Source: a bacterium (GTDB lineage Bacteria; SAR324; NAC60-12). Taken from it: a stretch of 64,000 nt of DNA. The stretch is taken from assembly GCA_965205865.1 (NCBI GenBank), contig CBDBHR010000029.1:64001-128000 (forward strand), read 5' to 3'. Shown here piece by piece: positions 7,545-32,163 of this stretch. Each line of letters begins with the position of its first letter. The first letter of the stretch is position 1. The translations under genes and the position numbers were made by a program. The notes under the pieces are model-generated. The model was not told where the DNA came from and made no database searches. It was given only the letters and a program-made list of their open reading frames with translations.

Positions 7545-7911
7545 AGGGTCAGGCTTGCAAGTTTGTAAAAATGGGTATTCTTTAAATTTTAACCTTTTTC
7601 AATTTGCCAAGATGTCTCGGAAAACGCTTTTGTACGACCCTGGTACGCTTTATCATGTGATACTTCGAGGCAATGGGGGCCAACGTATTATTTTCGATGA
7701 CTGCGACTCTCGACGCTTTTATCAGTCTTCGATTGGAAATCTGCAACAATCCGGGAAGTGGCAAATGCTCTCAATCGAGATGATTCTACTATCAGTCGTG
7801 GAGTGCATAAGTTGAGAGAAAGATTGAAGGAATCCACAAATCTCCAAGAGCGGTTAAAAAACTCAACCTGAAAATGTTTTCTTAAATTCGCAAACTTGCA
7901 AGCCTGACCCC
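7545..7911 (+). mobile_element. RAYT-derived non-autonomous element, copy 1
   Basis: 21-bp TIR (G)GGGTCAGGCTTGCAAGTTTG. Encodes a Y1 transposase N-terminus (MSRKT..PGTLYHVILRGNGGQRIIFDD) joined to a C-terminal HTH remnant (ATIREVANALNRDDSTISRG); the catalytic core is deleted. Confidence 0.85.
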
Positions 7912-8308: not shown

Positions 8309-9088
8309 TTACCCATGGACGTGCTGATACATCTTTCGTATAACTTTGAGGATTTTTGGTGCGTTGGCAAGGTATCGATTTTTTGTCTGTTCTTTGATAT
8401 CTCGAGGAATACCATGTAGCGCCTCGGCAATGGGACCAGCAATGGCTGCGAGGGTATCAGAATCGCCCCCCAGAGAGACAGCATTACGCACCGCATCTTT
8501 AAAACTATCTGATTCCAGCGCGCATGTAATCGCCTGCGGCACGGTGTCCTGGCAAGTCTCGTAAAATTTGTAACCGGGCCGAATTTCGTCTACAGTCCGG
8601 GTCAAGTCATAGCCGTATTCGGTGGTGATAAACTCTCGGATAAACGTTACATTCTTGCCTTGATATGCGAGCCAGATGGCGTGCGTTGTTGCTCTCGCTC
8701 CTTTAATACCCTCGGGGTGATTGTGGGTGACGGAGGTTACTTTGTCGGAAGCAATGAGTGCCGTATCCAAGTCGCCACGGTGTAAGAATGCTGCTGGTGA
8801 GACGCGCATCGCCGCACCATTTCCATAACTTCCGTAAGGTTCAGGCTGATTCAAATCAATCCAGTCTCTGAACATACCGCCGTAGCCACGCCCCGGAAAA
8901 CGGCGACACCACCTCTGCAGCGTTTCCGCAGGCGGGACTTCGCGCATCAGAATATCAGCAACAGCTGCAGTACAAACCGAATCGTCCGTGAAATCACAGC
9001 CATTGCCGAAGAAAGCAAAATCCTTGGTTTTTATTGGGTTCCACTCATAGATAGAACCGACGATGTCCCCGATAACTGCGCCTATCAT
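8309..9088 (-). CDS. ADP-ribosylglycohydrolase (DraG family)
   Basis: MIGAVIGDIVGS, FTDDS, SYGNGAAMR, TH and GGDSDT motifs. Confidence 0.92.
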   Translation of the reverse strand: MIGAVIGDIVGSIYEWNPIKTKDFAFFGNGCDFTDDSVCTAAVADILMREVPPAETLQRWCRRFPGRGYGGMFRDWIDLNQPEPYGSYGNGAAMRVSPAAFLHRGDLDTALIASDKVTSVTHNHPEGIKGARATTHAIWLAYQGKNVTFIREFITTEYGYDLTRTVDEIRPGYKFYETCQDTVPQAITCALESDSFKDAVRNAVSLGGDSDTLAAIAGPIAEALHGIPRDIKEQTKNRYLANAPKILKVIRKMYQHVHG

Positions 9089-9407
9089 ATACTCTCCATC
9101 TTGCAAATAGTCTTTCAGAATATCGGGCATTGGACAGTAGTGATTTATTGAAAAAAAACTATCCATAGCCCTTTGCAAGAGCATGACACAATTCGACTTT
9201 ACGGACAAGCGTCAATTCCGACAGATAGATTATTTGTTTCTCCTCTTGGGGGTTGTGGTATGGAAGAAGTTGAATTAATCCTCATTTTTGAAAAACATCA
9301 AAAAATTGACGTCAGAAAAAAATTTTATTTACGATTTCAAATTTTCTTTTATTGTCGGTTTATATCCTGCCGCATTGAATTTCACAGGTTACGCACGAGC
9401 ATTTCAC

Positions 9408-9725
9408 ATGAAACTCCTTTCCTGGAACGTTAACGTTTATACCTTGTCCCAAAATTTAAACAAAGTTGTTGAAGCTATTGGTTCCGTAAAGCCGGACCTG
9501 GTCACATTGCAGGAGGTCAATTCGGAGCTCGCCGGTGAGATGGCGAAATGCCTCGCTGGTCTCGGACTCAAAGACTCCTTTGACAGTGGCAAAGATGCGC
9601 CTGCCAAGGTTAACTTGGTTTTGTCACTCATACCAACGATGATGAATTTTTTAAATGACTTGGGGCAAAATCAAATAAAACACGAAAATTCCGGAGATTC
9701 TGTTTTTGATCTCCCCTATAATTGA
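9408..9725 (+). pseudogene. Endonuclease/exonuclease/phosphatase family, N-terminal fragment
   Basis: MKLLSWNV..PDLVTLQEV; too short for the full fold. Confidence 0.65.
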
Positions 9726-9738
9726 AAGGAAAGAATGT

Positions 9739-10713
9739 ATGACTACCGAGAAACTGGGAAAATTGGAACAAATTGATCTCCGTAGTGTTTGGGAATATGA
9801 AGAAAACGACTTCACGCCCTGGCTCGTGGAAGAAGAAAACCTGAATGATCTCGGCGAACTCTTGGCAATTCCATTGGAGTTTCCGGAACGTGAGAAAGCC
9901 ATTGGCCCTTACTACGCCGATGTCTTATGCAGAGATACAGATGATGACCGTTATGTCGACATCGAGAACCAGTTGGAAGTATCAGATCACGACCACCTGG
10001 GCAAACTGTTGACTTATGCTGCGCATTTCGACGCTTCGACCGTGATTTGGATCGCCAAGTCTTTCACTGATCAACACCGTGCGGCAGTGGACTGGCTCAA
10101 CGAGCATTCGGATGAAAAGACTCGATACTTTGGATTGGAAATTGAAGTCTGGCAAATCGGGGAGTCTGCTTACGCGCCAAAGTTCAATATCGTGGCCAAA
10201 CCGAATAATTGGACCAAGGGCACCCAGACCATGGGCTTGACCACACTTCGACAAATGCAACTCAAATTCTGGCAGGGCTTCAAGAACTATGTAAAAGATC
10301 ATGGAGAGCTTATAAAGCAAACCGCAGAACCTCAACCTAAGAATTGGATGGGGCTGGGCAAAAAAATCGGGCGTCCCGGTTTTTATCTCGATGCAGTTAC
10401 CTCCGGGCACAATGAACTGAGAGCGCAACTTTCCATGAATAAAAGTAAATTCCCTGCTCATTTCTATGAACAACTAAAATCTCAAAGAGAAGAGATCGAA
10501 TGCGAGATGGGACAGAAACTGACTTGGAACGATGATCCCAGTAGGATAAGTTCTCGTCAAGACGTTCCGGACCTAAATGATGAAAAAGCTCGTCTCAAGC
10601 AATATGCCTGGCTTCTGGAACAACTGGAGAAGCTTTATCGGGTTTTCTCGTGCTCGGGTCGGATTCAGAAACTGAAGGATCCGGAGGAACCACCAAACGA
10701 ACCATTAGAGTAA
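9739..10713 (+). CDS. DUF4268 protein with N-terminal PD-(D/E)XK-like nuclease
   Basis: LRSVWEYEENDFTPWL, ADVL..IENQL..DHDHLGKLLTYAA; RBS GAAAGGA. Confidence 0.82.
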   Translation: MTTEKLGKLEQIDLRSVWEYEENDFTPWLVEEENLNDLGELLAIPLEFPEREKAIGPYYADVLCRDTDDDRYVDIENQLEVSDHDHLGKLLTYAAHFDASTVIWIAKSFTDQHRAAVDWLNEHSDEKTRYFGLEIEVWQIGESAYAPKFNIVAKPNNWTKGTQTMGLTTLRQMQLKFWQGFKNYVKDHGELIKQTAEPQPKNWMGLGKKIGRPGFYLDAVTSGHNELRAQLSMNKSKFPAHFYEQLKSQREEIECEMGQKLTWNDDPSRISSRQDVPDLNDEKARLKQYAWLLEQLEKLYRVFSCSGRIQKLKDPEEPPNEPLE

Positions 10714-11031
10714 TAGCCATTGTCATCAAACGGAGAAAAATCTGATCATTTTGTAAAGGGATCAATACCGGATCTTCTATCAAAAACTGATGATGATCGA
10801 ACTCTCTGAAGACTGTCTACAGAAGGATTACCTTAGCTTTTTGAGTCCCCTTCCTCGTTCAACCACCAGTATACGTGCGTCCCTGCGAACGCGGCGTTCG
10901 ACTGGGTGTAGTACCAGGGTGTTTTACCCGCATTGTACGTTTATCACCCTGATTTACCGGTCCTGCTGCGGGGCTTCCACGCGGACGGTGACGATATCCG
11001 TGCCATGGTATTGCTAAAGAGGGGTCAGGCT

Positions 11032-11595
11032 GTGCGCCAGGAAAGCTGGCAAGAAATAGAGAGTGAAAGTCTCTTACTCGGTAAGGCAGTAACGACCCGC
11101 CGAGTCCCCGAGTCATGAGTGGTTATTCGCAAGGATAGGCGCTAAGCGTTGACAGGGGAGAACACAGGCTCGGTATTGAGCTCCGAAATCATAGTTTCAG
11201 GCGCTGACCTTGTGGTCTGGTGGGGAAGGCCATATCAACCGAAGGCGTTAGCGTGAGTCTCGGCTGAGCCTGGCGGAGTCAAAGACCCGGCGCAGGTGTG
11301 GAAGTTTCTTGATCGGAACCTGGGAGATCCTGAAGACGACTGTCAACATTCTATTGGTAGTCAGATCGGGAAAATTAATAAATAACCCCGATATCTACGT
11401 CTTCAGGAAGTCGGACAAGTTCGTAGTAGCGATGAAGCGGCGAACAATGAGATCATTTTCAGAGAGTAACAATGCAAAGGAAATCAACGGAGCCTGTGGA
11501 GCAAAGGGACTTGGCTGAGAGGAATTCTGCTTGCCCTCCCGTATTCGGAACTCAGAGGCCGGTAAAATCAGAGAGCGGTTTAAGCAGGGTGCGCC
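11032..11595 (+). ncRNA. Group II intron 5' fragment (domains I-III, truncated at the IEP start)
   Basis: Starts GTGCG. Conserved motifs GAAGCGTTGACAGGG-like, GGTATTGAGC, GGAACCTGGGAGATC, AAGTCGGAC..GTAGTAGC..GAAG and GGAGCAAAGGG; helix CCTGAAGACG/CGTCTTCAGG. Confidence 0.82.
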
Positions 11596-11880
11596 AAACG
11601 GCGGCTTCTATTTCGTTTGAAACTCGTATATCCTGATAATTTGGTTTGTCCGATCTCAGTATCACGTCGTTTCTGAAGCGAAATATTCGTTTGCAGAGCA
11701 GTTTTCCCTCGAAGGCGACTACCGCCACCCGGCCGTCCACCTGGTCAATACTGCGGTCGACGATTAAAATGTCATCTGGGAGAATGAGAGGCGCCATTGC
11801 GTTGCCGGAAATCTTGAAAAAGAAAGCGGATGCCTTGTTTTTGATGAAACGCTCATCGAGCGATGAGACTCAATCCACTT
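11596..11880 (-). pseudogene. umuD: UmuD/LexA S24 peptidase fragment
   Basis: SLDERFIKNKASAFFFKISGNAM..DDILIVDRS..LLCKR; both ends are disrupted. Confidence 0.72.
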
Positions 11881-11959
11881 AGAAGTAGTGCTCAGAACCA
11901 TTTTGTTGTGTTAAGATGAATAAAAAATCCATCACTCTATGATCAAATGGCTTTAAAAA

Positions 11960-13381
11960 GTGCAACAATATACTTTATTTCCTGACGATACGTTTGTTCC
12001 TGACTCCCCGAACGGTGGGTTGACCTGTGAACGAGCAGGTCTGCATCAACGATTTACAGACCGAGTATCGGTGAATCCGTATTTGACCCGAAAACTTGTG
12101 TCCTATCAGGGTAATAAAGAATCTGTGGGATTTCGCTGGATGAAGTACAAAGAGGGATTTTCCACCGCGCTCGTCCGACAGCTTATCAAGTCGGGAAAAG
12201 GGACACAAGTCCTTGACCCCTTTTCAGGAATTGGTACAACAGCTCTGACAGCGATGGGTATGGGGCTGCAGGGAACTGGCATAGAGATTTTACCCTTGGG
12301 CAATATGGTTGCGCACGCCGTCTCATATGCTGCAAATGGGCTGTCTGTTCAAGAGTTTTGCTGCGTTTCTCAAGCCTTGCTTCATGCAATTACTCATCAT
12401 GACTATGATGACCAATATGCGCTTAAACATGTTCGGATAACAAAAGAGGCTTTCCCCTATCGCACTGGATGCGAAATTGCTAAGGCTAGGAAATTCATAG
12501 CCCAGGTGGCCGACCCAGGTCTTTCAATGATGTTAAACCTTGCCTGTCTGAGTGTTCTGGAAGACGTCAGCTATACCCGGAAAGACGGACAGTTCTTGCG
12601 GTGGGACCCTCGTTCTGGAAGAACCGTTTCAACAAAGCTTGACAAGGGACAGGTTCCGTCTCTTTCGGCAGCCCTTACTGTTCGGCTTCGACAGATTACA
12701 CAAGACTTGCCCCTATTGAAAAAGGCTTATGCCGGCCCAAAACCGACTTTAATTGCTGGCTCTAGTTTGACGGAGTTGCAAAATCTGAATGAAGGTCAGT
12801 TTGATTGTGTCGTCACCTCTCCCCCGTATGCGAATCGGTATGATTACACAAGGACGTATGCGCTCGAACTGGTTTATCTCGGCTACAATGATTTACAGAT
12901 CAAAAACTTACGACAAGCACTTCTCTCAGCAACTGTAGAGAACCGTTCAAAAAAGGCATCACTCCGTGCTACATATCAGAATGCTCAGGATCTTGAGCAT
13001 GCATTTCACATGGTTGATGAACAAGCCGCATTGCAGGAAGTCCTTTCCGTGTTGCGAAATCACGCTTCGGAACTGAGTAATCGTAATGTTGTTTCTCTGT
13101 TAGAGAACTACTTTACTGAAATGGCCGTAATCGTGAAGGAACTTGGACGCGTTGTGAGAGCAGGGGGCAATGTGTTTATGGTAAATGACAATGTGCAATA
13201 TCATGGGGAAGAAGTGCCTGTCGATCTTATTTTGTCGGACTTTGCCGAACAGTCCGGATTCCGGTGCGCTGCGATTTGGATGCTGAAGCAGGGCAAAGGA
13301 AATTCCAGCCAGCAGATGGGGAAATTCGGTCGGCGTGAGATCAGGAAATGTGTATATCGGTGGGTCAAGACCAATGGTTGA
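11960..13381 (+). CDS. Site-specific DNA methyltransferase (N4-C/N6-A)
   Basis: LDPFSGIGTT and TSPPY motifs. Confidence 0.9.
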   Translation: MQQYTLFPDDTFVPDSPNGGLTCERAGLHQRFTDRVSVNPYLTRKLVSYQGNKESVGFRWMKYKEGFSTALVRQLIKSGKGTQVLDPFSGIGTTALTAMGMGLQGTGIEILPLGNMVAHAVSYAANGLSVQEFCCVSQALLHAITHHDYDDQYALKHVRITKEAFPYRTGCEIAKARKFIAQVADPGLSMMLNLACLSVLEDVSYTRKDGQFLRWDPRSGRTVSTKLDKGQVPSLSAALTVRLRQITQDLPLLKKAYAGPKPTLIAGSSLTELQNLNEGQFDCVVTSPPYANRYDYTRTYALELVYLGYNDLQIKNLRQALLSATVENRSKKASLRATYQNAQDLEHAFHMVDEQAALQEVLSVLRNHASELSNRNVVSLLENYFTEMAVIVKELGRVVRAGGNVFMVNDNVQYHGEEVPVDLILSDFAEQSGFRCAAIWMLKQGKGNSSQQMGKFGRREIRKCVYRWVKTNG

Positions 13382-14330
13382 TACAAAACAAAGCAATGCT
13401 CAGGCCCGATCTTAAATCTTGTCAAAGGCACTAAAACGCCGGAATGACATTCGTATCCGTACATTGATTGAGAATTTTACTGGTGATCTGAACTACCTGA
13501 AGCTTGGGTTGAAAGATCTCGCAATCTCAGGTGAAGCGTGGGCGTGCATTCAACAATTGGAGGTGGAGCCGAGAATGGTATTTGCCCACCCTGACTTACT
13601 ACAACGACATCCCGATACCTCACTCTATTATCGTGGAATTGCTACATTGTCCCTAAAACGAGTAAGCGACATGGTGACGAATGTAGACAGTTGGGAAAAT
13701 CCGAAAAGAAATAAACAGCGAACACCGAAACGAAATACTGTCCTCAGAATCACACGGCTATACAATGCTGTGATTTCTTCCATCATCGAAGGAACGGATA
13801 AATGGACTCTGGAAAATGGCTACCGCAACATCCTGGCGACCATTGGCATCACCCAAGACGGAAAAATGCGGAATATCATTGGACAGGAAGCAGAGCGTGC
13901 GATTCAAGAGAAGCTGTTCCAATGGATTGTAGACATGAGGATCCCCTGTGAGCAACAAGGACGGTGGTACCTACTTGGCGAGGCAAAAACCATTCGTATG
14001 GCCTATGGCTCTGAACCAGATATTCTGTTTGAAAAATACAACATGCAGACTAAAACCTGGATACAGGAAGTGACCATTGAAATTAAAGGCGGAACGGACC
14101 CGGCTGGAGCTTTGGAACGATTAGGCGCAATTAAAAAGAGTTTTGATCAAACTCACGCGCGAACAGAAAACATTGCCATACTGGGTGTGGTTACCAACGC
14201 AATGCGAGCAGAGTTGAATGAAATGAAAATTACGGATTTCGACCTGTATGACCTTATACATTCCAAGGAAGGATGGGACGAGTTTATAAAAGAGTTATTC
14301 TATCATAAACTACGGCTACTCTCCTCCTAG
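13374..14330 (+). pseudogene. XcyI-family Type II restriction endonuclease with premature TAA at codon 14
   Basis: ATG at 13374 overlaps the MTase stop; in-frame TAA at 13413-13415; SEPD..IEIKGGTDPAGALERLG. Confidence 0.7.
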
Positions 14331-14334
14331 AAAT

Positions 14335-14701
14335 GGGGTCAGGCTTGCAAGTTTGTAAAAATGTGTATTCTTTAAATTTAACCATTTTCAATTTGCCAAG
14401 ATGTCTCGAAAAACCCGTTTGTACGACCCCGGTACGCTTTATCATGTGATACTTCGAGGCAATGGGGGCCAACTTATTTTTTTCGATGACAGCGACTTTC
14501 GTCGCTTTTATCAGTCTTCGATTGGAAATCCGCAACAATCCGGGAAGTGGTAAATGCTCTCAATCGAGATGATTCTACTTTCAGTCGTGGAGTGCATAAA
14601 TTGAGAGAAAGATTGAAGGAATCCACAAATCTCCAAGAGCGGTTAAAAGAACTCCACCTGAAAATGTTTTCTTAAATTCGCAAACTTGCAAGCCTGACCC
14701 C
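14335..14701 (+). mobile_element. RAYT-derived non-autonomous element, copy 2
   Basis: Near-identical to 7545-7911; right end partly duplicated (CTGACCCCTTCA twice). Confidence 0.85.
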
Positions 14702-14717
14702 TTCACTGACCCCTTCA

Positions 14718-15105
14718 CATACGGCAACCAATCCGATACCAAAGAAGGGCATGCTGTTTTCGAGCAAACTGCTCTGAAATATCCAAGCTTGAGAGCTTTT
14801 CCCGCTGACCAAGGAAATTGTGGTACCTTGCTGGAGTTTGTCGAAAAGGTATTGGGACTGAAACTCGACATCGCCAAAGGCACCAAGGGCCAGTGGTTGC
14901 TCTTGAAAAAACGGTGGATTGTGGAGCGCACCTTCGCTTTGTTCGGGGGATTCAGAAGATTAGCCAAAGATTTTGAAATCCTCCCAAAATATAATCTGGT
15001 CGATCGTGTGGGAACCCTCACAAACACTGCTGAAAATATGATTTGTATTGCCATGATCAAAGTTACCCTGGCCAAGTGTCTTATATAACCAAACGAGTTC
15101 TTAGG
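14718..15105 (+). mobile_element. IS5-family transposase C-terminal fragment
   Basis: ADQG..KRWIVERTFA..RRLAKDFE. Confidence 0.8.
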
Positions 15106-15249
15106 ATATTGGACAACCCGTTGCTTTAATTGACATTTTCCAATACTTTGATATCTTATTTTAAAGCTCGTTATCTTGCTTAAATAACCGGTTGAACCTC
15201 CAGAATACCCGGAGCAGTGTTTCTCTGCACTTGCTGATACTGAAAATAT

Positions 15250-17181
15250 ATGAAGCACTTAGACGACTTCCCTAAATACGACGAAAATCGTAGAATTCAA
15301 GAACTATCAGAATCGGCATTCCATTCGGCAGTAACCGAATGTGACGCATTCTTTATTCAAAAGGAAGACAAGAAAGACTATGGAACCGACTTCCAAATCG
15401 AAGTGCGCGATGACAGAGCAGCGACGAACATAAGAGTGCATGTGCAACTGAAAGGCACCAAATGCGAAGAGAACTCGGACGGTAGCGTCAGCAGGGATGT
15501 TTCCAGATCGACCTTGAATTACCTGGCGATGCAACCCGATTCGATTTTTGTTTGCTATCATATTCCTTCAAATCGTTTACTTGTTCGCCAGGTGGATAGT
15601 GTGATCCGGGAATATGAGCGTATCCATTTGCGGTCACTTCAACGAAAAAAAAATTGGAGCACCCAAAAAACAATTACAGTCAAATTTATTGACGACTTTG
15701 ATAAGACATATCAAAACACCCTGAAAGCGCACGCCGTAGCTTCCGCAAAAGCAGCGAGAGATCATCGCTTGTCATGTACTATTCAGCCTCCTGGGGTGTA
15801 TGTATCTGCAGACCCGCAACAGGAGAAGGAACGGCTGATCGCTCTTTATAACTGCGGGGAAGATAAAAGCATCAGTCAATCCTTCGAAATTTTTCGCGCA
15901 GTTCTCGGCGCCGCGCCCGAAGACCTGATTCACGCATACATGGCCGAAATCAACTTGGGCATTAACGGTGTGGCATGCGATAAATCCCGCATTGAAGAAG
16001 GTATCAAAGTGCTTGAGAGTGCAGTCAACAACGGCAACTATGATCCTGGATTATTGCTTTATTCCATTGGCAACGGGTGGTTGGCCGTTAGAAATTATGA
16101 AAAAGCAAAGGAAGCGTACAATTCGGCTCTGAGATCATTGGAACATGGAGGTCCCTCAGTAGTCGCTCAATGTTATAAGAATCTGGGGACCACTATGAAA
16201 AATTTGGGAAAGGAAAATGAGGCTTTCAAACTCTATGAAAAGGCATTGGAATATGATCCAAATCTGGGTGAGGCTCATTTTGCTCTGGCAGTTTGGCACT
16301 GTGATCGCAATAGCGAACTGGACCGTGCATTGTATCATTTGGATAAGATAGTCTGGCACGAAGGCTCTGCCGGAACTGCCGCATCAGTACAAGGCTGGCG
16401 TGCGTATATATTTTTTAATACTGGAGACATCAAGTCCGCATTTCGTGAGATTAATACCCTGTTGAGTGAAGTAGACAATTTTGATTGGATATGGACATGG
16501 TGCGAACGACTAGTCAGAATACATGGCAGAACATCGCTTGATGCCGCGCAAAAGGCGCTCCAGTTCTGGGATAAATACCTCAGTAAGTTTCCTGAAAATC
16601 TGAAGGCCAAAACCGAGAGGTTGCTTTGCATTTGGTACATTAAGTCGAACGGAGGTTCAGTTGCGCACGATTTTGAAAGTTTTAAAAAGGATATCGCCAA
16701 CGTCGTTTCCCAAGGTGCCCCGGAACCTGCATTTCTTTGGGATCGCACTGGTCATTGGGCGCAAGATGAAAAGAACTGGGTCGAGGCAGAAAAATGTTAC
16801 CGAAAGGCATTTGAGTTGTCACCGTCGGAGTATGGATATTGTTTGGGAACCGCATTGAATTTTCTGGGCAGATATGAAGAAGCGCTGCCTATACTCACTG
16901 AACAGGCAGAAGAACATATACCAGATGAAAAGAGTTGGTTCCAGGTCGCTGTTGCCAGAAAAGGAATGAACGATGTCGAAGGCTCCATATCAGCTTACAA
17001 ACGTGCCATACAATTGGACGAAAATTACGATCTTGCTTGGTTCGATTTGGGTGGCATCTATTGGAATTCTCAAAATTGGGAACTCGCAATAGCTATATGG
17101 AAAGAAGCGATCCGACGCTTTCCATCACATGAGTTATCATCGAAGTTGTTCCAGGACTTGCCGTCCCTGTTTAAACAATGA
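15250..17181 (+). CDS. DUF4365 (PD-(D/E)XK-like) plus TPR-repeat protein
   Basis: DYGTDFQIE..VQLKGT at the N-terminus, followed by multiple TPRs. Confidence 0.8.
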   Translation: MKHLDDFPKYDENRRIQELSESAFHSAVTECDAFFIQKEDKKDYGTDFQIEVRDDRAATNIRVHVQLKGTKCEENSDGSVSRDVSRSTLNYLAMQPDSIFVCYHIPSNRLLVRQVDSVIREYERIHLRSLQRKKNWSTQKTITVKFIDDFDKTYQNTLKAHAVASAKAARDHRLSCTIQPPGVYVSADPQQEKERLIALYNCGEDKSISQSFEIFRAVLGAAPEDLIHAYMAEINLGINGVACDKSRIEEGIKVLESAVNNGNYDPGLLLYSIGNGWLAVRNYEKAKEAYNSALRSLEHGGPSVVAQCYKNLGTTMKNLGKENEAFKLYEKALEYDPNLGEAHFALAVWHCDRNSELDRALYHLDKIVWHEGSAGTAASVQGWRAYIFFNTGDIKSAFREINTLLSEVDNFDWIWTWCERLVRIHGRTSLDAAQKALQFWDKYLSKFPENLKAKTERLLCIWYIKSNGGSVAHDFESFKKDIANVVSQGAPEPAFLWDRTGHWAQDEKNWVEAEKCYRKAFELSPSEYGYCLGTALNFLGRYEEALPILTEQAEEHIPDEKSWFQVAVARKGMNDVEGSISAYKRAIQLDENYDLAWFDLGGIYWNSQNWELAIAIWKEAIRRFPSHELSSKLFQDLPSLFKQ

Positions 17182-17769: not shown

Positions 17770-17867
17770 GGGGGTCAGGCCTTTGATTAAATGAAAAGGG
17801 AGCAAAAAAATTAGACTCGTTCCTAATCAAATAATCAAAAGCCTGACCCCCTTCAAAGCCTGACCCC
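17770..17867. repeat. Short GGGGTCAGGC inverted-repeat element with duplicated right end
   Basis: GGGGTCAGGCCTTTGATTA..TAATCAAAAGCCTGACCCC, plus a second AAAGCCTGACCCC. Confidence 0.75.
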
Positions 17868-30881: not shown

Positions 30882-31343
30882 GGGGTCAGGCTTGCAAGTT
30901 TGCAAAAATGGGTATTCTTTAAATTTTAACCTTTTTCAATTTGCCAAGATGTCTCGGAAAACGCGTTTGTACGGACTCTGGTACGCTTTATCATGTGATA
31001 CTTCGAGGCAATGAGGCCACCGTTGTCGCCGCCGCTCCCCCACGTATTTCACTCACATTTGGCCCCAGCACAACCAAGTCCGGTGGAGGCCCGTCCACCG
31101 TGATCGGCCGAGCGTCCGAGCATTTTTCGATGACTACGACTCTCGACGTTTTATCAGTCTTCGATTGGAAATCTGCAACAATCCGGGAAGTGGCAAATGC
31201 TCTCAATCGAGATGATTCTACTATCGGTCGTGGAGAGCATAAGTTGAGAGAAAGATTGAAGGAATCCACAAATCTCCAAGAGCGGTTAAAAAACTCAACC
31301 TAAAAATGTTTTCTTAAATTCGCAAACTTGCAAGCCTGACCCC
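30882..31343 (+). mobile_element. RAYT-derived element copy 3, with inserted CARDB-gene pieces
   Basis: Both TIRs present; inserts at 31020-31041 and 31049-31122. Confidence 0.8.
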
Positions 31344-31792: not shown

Positions 31793-32158
31793 GGGGTCAG
31801 GCTTGCAAGTTTGTAAAAACGGATAAATTAACCTTTTTTTAATTTGCCAAGATGTCTCGGAAAACGCGTTTGTACGACTCTGGTACGCTTTATCATGTGA
31901 TACTTCGAGGCAATGGAGGCCAACGTATTTTTTTCGATGACTGCGACTCTCGTCGCTTTTATCAGTCTTCGATTGGAAATCTGCAATAATCCGGGAAGTG
32001 GCAAATGCTCTCAATCGAGATGATTCTACTATCAGTCGTGGAGTGCATAAGTTGAGAGAAAGATTGAAGGAATCCACAAATCTCCAAGAGCGGTTAAAAG
32101 AATTCAACCTAAGTCTTCGAAATGTTTTCTTAAATTCGCAAACTTGCAAGCCTGACCC
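31793..32158 (+). mobile_element. RAYT-derived non-autonomous element, copy 4
   Basis: Near-identical to copies 1 and 2. Confidence 0.85.
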
Positions 32159-32163
32159 TCTCA

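Follow-up and report, generated by a model that had tools for sequence, protein, structure and literature searches.

Our analysis indicates that the intron sequence found in the window (the whole 64,000-nt stretch of DNA that was analysed) is a dead copy, derived from an ORF-less form, of a group II intron family that has very probably spread by ordinary retrohoming into the terminal-repeat tip of RAYT-like Y1 transposase elements. A search of the host genome (G000; 4.74 Mb in 30 contigs, 91.9% complete) found the family at 44 loci. The exons of these copies, the empty paralogues of their targets and the pairing between intron and 5' exon all bear on this reading.

In the window, GTGCG (11032-11036) lies directly 3' of GGGGTCAGGCT (11021-11031, + strand), and the sequence across the junction reads ...GCTAAAGA GGGGTCAGGCT / GTGCGCCAGG... 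The 5' exon is the outermost 11 nt of a Y1-transposon/REP-type terminal repeat, as identified by motif counts, and its positions -6 to -1, CAGGCT, are the IBS1 of this copy; the remainder of the terminal repeat has been lost at the locus. The Rfam model RF02005 (group-II-D1D4-6) matched 11066-11288 over its full length (model positions 1-225; 165.6 bits, E 5.8e-48, gathering score 49). By RF02005 and BLAST, the intron fragment occupies 11032-11603 (+) and corresponds to nt 1-572 of the ORF-less form, that is, domains I-III and the 5' part of domain IV; when the window was compared by BLAST with a full-length copy from the same genome, intron nt 1-572 alone aligned. The original prediction had placed an exact intron boundary between GGGGTCAGGCT and GTGCG, and the letters bear this out: the intron has the canonical GUGCG start, and the last two bases of the full-length copy, AC, coincide exactly with the end of the domain V-VI model. 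It had also drawn the intron to 11595, which has to be extended, as the homology runs to 11603 and stops there.

The fragment includes a remnant of the RT/maturase ORF at 11472-11603 (+), the first ~44 codons (MQRKSTEPVE...), identical to the N-terminus of the 470-aa protein of a full-length copy (L012). Domain V/VI (RF00029) was absent from the window at the gathering threshold, and also from 9000-17000 at E values up to 1. Because domains V and VI are missing, the window copy is, judged from its sequence, a dead 3'-truncated relic of an ORF-less derivative, predicted to be unable to splice or to move. In this regard, GCGCCAAACGGCG in the window is the deletion junction of the ORF-less intron form, and the window diverges after it. 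When the window was aligned with one ORF-less copy and with two S24 loci from the congener G001, a rearrangement junction became apparent: the 10-nt microhomology CCAAACGGCG (11594-11603, +) occurs both in an S24 peptidase gene and at the point where the intron has lost its ORF, and this suggests that the 3' part of the intron and the 3' exon were lost by a microhomology deletion. Outside the intron, a C-terminally truncated fragment of an S24 (LexA/UmuD-like) peptidase gene is found on the - strand (11552-11797; Pfam Peptidase_S24, E 5.7e-11), with homology to the G001 gene from 11594 to ~11865. In a second 3'-truncated copy (G000:C30:988900-989470), too, the end comes to within 1-3 nt of the point of ORF deletion (nt 571-572); of these two independent truncated copies, one derives from the short junction form and the other from the long form.

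The arrangement at this locus was also followed in other assemblies. One contig of 420 nt (run X1) covers 11573-11992 with zero differences, X1 being perhaps the sample of origin and hence not independent, and runs X3, X6 and X9 gave no contig crossing 11603/11604 and no cover over 11638-11800. In contigs of other runs the 5' flank goes on without repeat or intron, in a congener-like manner (loose ends at 11013-11015). The orthologous flank in the congener stops at window position 11016 and is followed by an unrelated gene, with no repeat there. The arrangement of repeat plus intron at the window locus seems to be strain-specific.

Across the genome, the family comprises copies in very different states. 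Four are intact, at 1957 nt (C26:286295, C29:631162, C29:732458 and C30:423584), one carries an internal insertion of ~80 nt, and two contain the ORF and are truncated at the 3' end. About 16 are ORF-less copies of 690-703 nt (~692), in which nt 1-571/574 are joined to 1825/1836-1957, and six further ORF-less copies hold a nested second ORF-less intron (~905 nt, at ~nt 401); the remaining loci are fragments. Full-length and ORF-less copies end in ...ACGGTGAC. The nested insert (e.g. L023:~598-1506, in G000:C28:262897-264375) starts with GTGAGC and scores 33.2 bits with RF02003, short of that model's gathering score; it resembles another ORF-less group II intron sitting in domain IV, which would make the composite a twintron, and in our reading its junction is one base off a clean GUGAG...AU insertion. 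Altogether, intron sequence amounts to ~40 kb or ~0.9% of the genome, as summed from locus spans including the nested inserts and two spacers. All eight loci on contig C28 are on the + strand.

The full-length copy encodes a 470-aa protein that was assigned to TIGR04416 (group_II_RT_mat; 339.8 bits, cut-off 300), with RVT_1 (E 2e-36) as its sole Pfam domain, and its nearest solved structures are group II intron RTs. No endonuclease (HNH) domain was detected in this protein by the Pfam search. The last 96 nt of the full-length copy were matched by the full RF00029 model, which ends on the terminal AC, with 28.8 bits, below the gathering score of 40.

The 5' exons of the family are strongly alike. 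Among the 40 copies that retain their 5' end, 23 carry the exact motif GGGGTCAGGCY, eight differ from it by one base, five by two and four by more, so that 36/40 lie within two mismatches; one of the four most divergent copies is a tandem copy behind another intron. Homologous copies thus share their exon, and unrelated 5' exons, which would have spoken against homing into the repeat, were not what we found. Position -1 of the exon is T in 24/40 copies and C in 16/40. Genome-wide, the exact motif occurs 138 times against 3.5 expected from base composition; 23 of these sites are occupied by the intron and the 115 without it go on as terminal repeats, mostly with TTTGAT (34), TGCAAG (25), TGCATA (15) or TGAAAG (6). 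When one mismatch was allowed, the motif was found 14 times in the window versus 0.69 expected, a number reached by none of 100 shuffles. An unoccupied example in the window, GGGGTCAGGCT/TGCAAG at 14335-14351, has the continuation that had been described as the normal one for the repeat. Furthermore, empty paralogous ends are contiguous (GGGGTCAGGCT/TGAAAGTTTGG) and occupied ends have the intron between the same two bases, which argues against a 5' boundary elsewhere.

The 3' exons were collected by pattern search, and the 38 matches left 36 informative ones after removal of one unrelated sequence and one that abuts a tandem copy. Position +1 is T in 29/36 of these 3' ends (counted by eye). 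Four repeat families account for 30/36: TTTGATTA (16), TGNAAG-type Y1 ends (TGAAAG, TGCAAG, TGCGAG or TGTGAC; 6), TGCATA with its variants (6) and TCGTTA (2). Among the rest, three start with CYTTTG and may represent a fifth repeat family, and three are unique. Insertion thus falls on a fixed base 11 nt into the repeat, and target bases are neither duplicated nor lost, which is a signature of retrohoming.

Covariation with the 5' exon places EBS1 at 11214-11219 (+), where GGUCUG forms the terminal loop of a hairpin (11203-11230). This loop pairs with CAGGCY, and since its first G accepts U as well as C opposite it at exon position -1, both T and C are found there. We compared the loop with the last six exon bases in a set of 18 introns, made up of this family and of RF02005 introns from other phyla (the 5' ends of the distant ones were taken from Rfam coordinates): with G-U pairs allowed, pairing was 6/6 in 14/18 introns and at least 5/6 in 18/18. 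Mismatched intron-exon pairs reached 6/6 in 33/294 cases, in a control that was lenient (9 offsets, G-U pairs, related targets) and makes this contrast a rough one. The covarying EBS1/exon pairs are GGUCUG/CAGGCY in G000, AGCCUG/CAGGCU in G001 and UGGCUG/CAGCCA in a different genus of the same family (G008), and further pairs among related introns include UGAGCG/CGCUCA and UUAACG/CGUUAA. Variants in the first base of EBS1 are weakly associated with exon position -1 (AGUCUG with 7 T and 4 C; GGUCUG with 10 T and 9 C).

AGCCTG (11267-11272) had been put forward earlier as a possible partner of the exon, with the caution that it may belong to an internal helix with CAGGC, and this caution proved well founded. 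In the Rfam consensus structure, UCAGGC (11197-11202, +) and GCCUGG (11268-11273, within a segment at 11267-11273, +, that contains AGCCTG) are the 5' and 3' strands of a conserved domain I helix, which forms 6/6 pairs in 14/19 introns and 5/6 in 4, through many compensatory double changes. As an EBS1, AGCCTG was rejected: G000 (6/6) and G001 (5/6) are the only members of the set in which it matches the exon, and the other 17 introns show 1-4/6 pairs. UCAGGC is also identical to exon positions -7 to -2 in G000 and its congener, and its partner strand could also pair with the exon. An EBS2 candidate, GACCC (11094-11098), did not hold up in this comparison, as it pairs in close kin only, with 0-4/5 pairs in 16 more distant introns and one apparent compensatory change in the other genus (G008). 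EBS2 was not found by the exon-pairing test, so that the pairing identified accounts for exon positions -6 to -1 and not for -7 to -11.

The repeat that carries the target belongs to Y1 transposase elements. Pfam Y1_Tnp was found above its cut-off at 15 places in the genome, and for 10/15 of these genes the motif, which forms the tip of inverted terminal repeats, stands in inverted orientation on the two sides. Five of the ten flanked elements have the intron in their left end, in sense orientation, between GGCT and TGAAAG, TTTGAT or variants, and three empty paralogues (C29:722638, 737187 and 745556) show the uninterrupted GGGGTCAGGCTTGAAAGTTTGG. In the region C29:722000-746000, five near-identical elements with a 335-aa Y1 transposase lie within 25 kb, two with the intron (one ORF-less, one full-length) and three empty.

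A 330-aa transposase shows HVH and YIHLNP motifs and a DnaA-C-like HTH tail, and its best NCBIfam family was REP_Tyr_transpos (NF047646; 70.8 bits, under the cut-off of 80). Classical RAYT genes are single-copy and domesticated. Here the transposase is present in at least ten flanked copies, so it is RAYT-like rather than a RAYT and behaves like an insertion sequence. The idea that the intron homes into a multicopy RAYT/REP end thus holds for the repeat, given the motif tips around ten of the 15 Y1 genes and the intron in five of them, and has to be amended for the transposase, which is multi-copy and not a classical RAYT.

Non-autonomous derivatives add to the number of tips. Elements of 367 bp in the window (7545-7911, 14335-14701 and 31793-32159) are internal deletions that keep the first transposase codons; the one at 14335-14701 (+) is an intact internally deleted element with empty intron targets at both tips (14335-14345, +; 14691-14701, -). 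Doublets of ~90 bp (e.g. 17771-17850 in the window) consist of both tips of the TTTGATTA subfamily, and 13 introns lie inside near-identical doublets, at either tip and always reading inward. Two irregular copies were also seen in the window. At 30882-31343, a copy of the 367-bp element has an extra G+C-rich insert of ~95 nt (~31013-31110) where the transposase remnant carries its deletion, and at 17771-17867 a doublet of ~80 bp is followed by a second right-hand tip, with AGCCTGACCCCC present twice, 17 nt apart.

From these data we propose that the intron RNA would pair its EBS1 loop GGUCUG with CAGGCY and reverse-splice between GGGGTCAGGCY and T, at a site 11 nt inside a terminal inverted repeat that is common to several Y1 subfamilies and to their 367-bp and ~90-bp derivatives. 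Since the target is itself a multicopy mobile repeat, the intron would have had more than 100 sites at its disposal, of which the present loci are the ones reached. Movement of the ORF-less copies would presumably depend on RT supplied in trans by the four intact copies, and priming may take place at replication forks, as for other endonuclease-less (En-less) introns in the accessible part of PMC5894124. The window copy would have lost its 3' part and its 3' exon after insertion, by deletion at the 10-nt microhomology. On sequence grounds, the family is presumably still mobile.

The main competing explanation is hitch-hiking, in which one or a few original insertions into the repeat family gave rise to most copies, as the Y1 transposase moved elements and doublets that already contained the intron. 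We regard it as unlikely, while granting it some weight: an intron 11 nt inside the element leaves the tips at the ends of the composite, and the 13 intron copies in near-identical ~90-bp doublets fit either route. However, introns are found in at least four repeat families and at both doublet tips, the intron is also present at sites that deviate from the motif by 2-4 bases and lack a repeat-like 3' exon (e.g. C28:358767 and C3:117990), and Y1 elements that are identical and close neighbours differ in the intron they hold (an ORF-less one at C29:725560, a full-length one at C29:732458). Several families, both tips and mixed forms together require several independent insertions in any case.

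Two further readings would do away with homing at this locus or in general. Recombination or an assembly artefact could have placed an intron fragment beside some unrelated motif copy, and the window locus is indeed rearranged, with a microhomology at its 3' junction, a congener flank without the repeat and contigs from other runs without repeat or intron; but 22 other exact copies have the very same 5' junction and the 3' junction is spanned by the 420-nt contig without mismatch, which makes such a chance juxtaposition very improbable. Alternatively, the 11-nt motif could be part of the intron itself, whose 5' end would then be at 11021, or the repeats could insert beside introns, the motif being no target at all. 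That the motif accompanies most intron copies would agree with this, yet we find the idea scarcely tenable: the exact motif sites without intron, 115 of 138, go on as terminal repeats, the intron has its canonical GUGCG start, EBS1 pairs with the last six exon bases and changes accordingly in relatives with other exons, and the repeat interrupted by the intron is unbroken in its paralogues. Retrohoming into the repeat tip therefore remains our preferred explanation.

As for its lineage, the features of IIE/IIF introns, as given in the accessible part of PMC3753933, are a small ribozyme (450-700 nt once the protein gene is subtracted), an alpha' located in the tip of the DId3 stem-loop and a 5-nt loop in domain V. 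Without the ORF, the ribozyme of our family measures 544 nt (1957 minus 1413 nt), within this range, and the UUAGCG of a terminal loop (nt 217-222) has its complement in CGCUAA (nt 109-114) in the single sequence considered. The domain V loop plausibly has 5 nt by eye (GCGU-UAGCA-GCGC; GCGG-UAAUU-CCGC in relatives), and RNAfold closes one more pair, leaving 3 nt. Together with the missing endonuclease domain of the protein, these points fit a tentative placement as an IIE/IIF-like intron.

The same intron was found in the congener G001 (90-91% identity) and in the other genus of the family, G008 (83-87%), and was not found in 38 other relatives searched. The 5' exons are GGGGTCTGGCT or GGGGGGCAGGCT in G001 and AAGGACAGCCA in G008. 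G001 has 36 exact motif sites versus 3 for the reversed control, with many doublets ~80 bp apart, and this abundance suggests that the target family predates the intron burst in G000. Additionally, alike 5' exons are found in unrelated hosts (GGGACAGGCA, GGGGGACAGGCG, AAGGACACCCA and AAGGACAGCCA). A Psychrobium record contains hairpin-like GGGACAGGCA...TGCCTGTCCC(T)8 units around an 82-nt intron stub, and a Planctomycetaceae record has a full intron inside a doublet. The Psychrobium units, ~110 bp long (L088, L089) and present in at least four places, consist of an A-run, GGGACAGGCA, the first 82 nt of a related intron, TGCCTGTCCC and a T-run, and resemble a terminator-like hairpin.

One could extend these observations to the whole RF02005-type En-less clade, in several phyla, as being adapted to insertion in the outer arm of inverted repeats that form hairpins (Y1-transposon ends, REP doublets and terminator-like hairpins) and whose G-rich tips, for instance GGGAC/GGGGTC, precede another 5-6 nt; were this so, the conservation of exon positions -10 to -7 would reflect recognition by the protein or by DNA structure. 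We consider such a specialisation quite improbable. An inverted partner of the 5' exon within 250 nt was found for just 1/12 distant full-length introns, so a clade-wide rule that the target is an inverted repeat was not supported, and in genomes of distant hosts Y1 genes are not adjacent to the introns. In five genomes, the degenerate pattern RGGACAGSCR was barely above its reversed-pattern control, except in the Psychrobium record (30 vs 11). In six of the introns (L055, L058, L059, L060, L075 and L080), GAAAGCG or GAUAGCG is aligned to GUGCG and IBS1 ends two bases upstream of the aligned GUG; one RF02005 sub-lineage thus apparently has non-canonical 5' ends.

The closest precedent for this system is RmInt2. 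As far as the accessible parts of PMC4615759 and PMC5894124 report, all RmInt2 copies in Sinorhizobium meliloti are in the inverted repeats of ISRm17, with two opposite-strand sites per element, so that both cases involve an En-less intron in the terminal inverted repeats of a multicopy element with recognition by EBS-IBS pairing. They differ in that RmInt2 is of class D, with 7 copies and the ISRm17 transposase, whereas our family is IIE/IIF-like, mostly ORF-less, present at the 44 loci and tied to an HUH Y1 transposase; moreover, the target tip here is common to several subfamilies and to short non-autonomous derivatives, with its 138 exact sites. The strategy is therefore known, and the present case is an unusually large instance of it. 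RmInt1 in ISRm2011-2 likewise has its homing site in a multicopy IS and an En-less protein; according to the accessible part of PMC5894124, its target is internal to the IS instead of in a terminal repeat, it belongs to class D, and both IBS2 and the contacts with the protein have been defined for it. The same source describes RmInt1 retrohoming as biased to the lagging-strand template. In our genome, GC skew in 50-kb windows stayed within about +/-0.04 with irregular sign changes, too weak for a test of lagging-strand bias.

Other known introns share parts of the picture. TeI3/TeI4 of Thermosynechococcus elongatus (Mohr et al. 2010, PMC2882425) are likewise reported to show genome-wide proliferation of one family, ORF-less derivatives made by ORF deletion, and nested introns; set against them, a single target motif is reused here, because the target is itself a repeat. 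A 2015 review (PMC4424553), in its accessible part, names homing sites, terminators and attC sites as target specificities of bacterial introns, and the present intron is of the homing-site type. In the same account, IIC introns resemble ours in being En-less and associated with inverted-repeat DNA motifs, and they differ in using terminator or attC motifs, while here there is a fixed base, a 6-bp EBS1-IBS1 pairing and a different Rfam family (RF02005). A group II intron of Pseudomonas putida KT2440 was, as here, found with REPs, in just 2/9 copies (22%), and the accessible part of that paper gives no fixed insertion point in the REP (Tobes and Pareja 2006, PMC1525189). A literature search that omitted most subscription journals found no publication linking group II introns to RAYT or REPIN elements.

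These results suggest a simple route to high intron copy number, in which the target specificity is not diversified and the 11-nt tip of proliferating Y1 transposons is used instead, each spread of the repeat creating new intron sites. The many natural occupied and empty sites could serve to work out the target rules of the little-studied IIE/IIF-like introns and the trans-mobilisation of ORF-less copies. In addition, the system is suited to asking whether an intron 11 nt from the tip disables a single-strand transposon or rides on it.

Lastly, the neighbourhood of the intron fragment in the window contains, downstream, an XcyI-type restriction-modification pair (N6_N4_Mtase at 11960-13381 and RE_XcyI at 13419-14330), which is 91% identical to a G001 locus that is likewise beside a repeat tip. 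A DUF4268 protein (9706-10713) and a DUF4365-TPR protein (15250-17181) are also encoded in this region, and 9706-17181 as a whole, with the S24 fragment, looks like a defence or mobile-element island.
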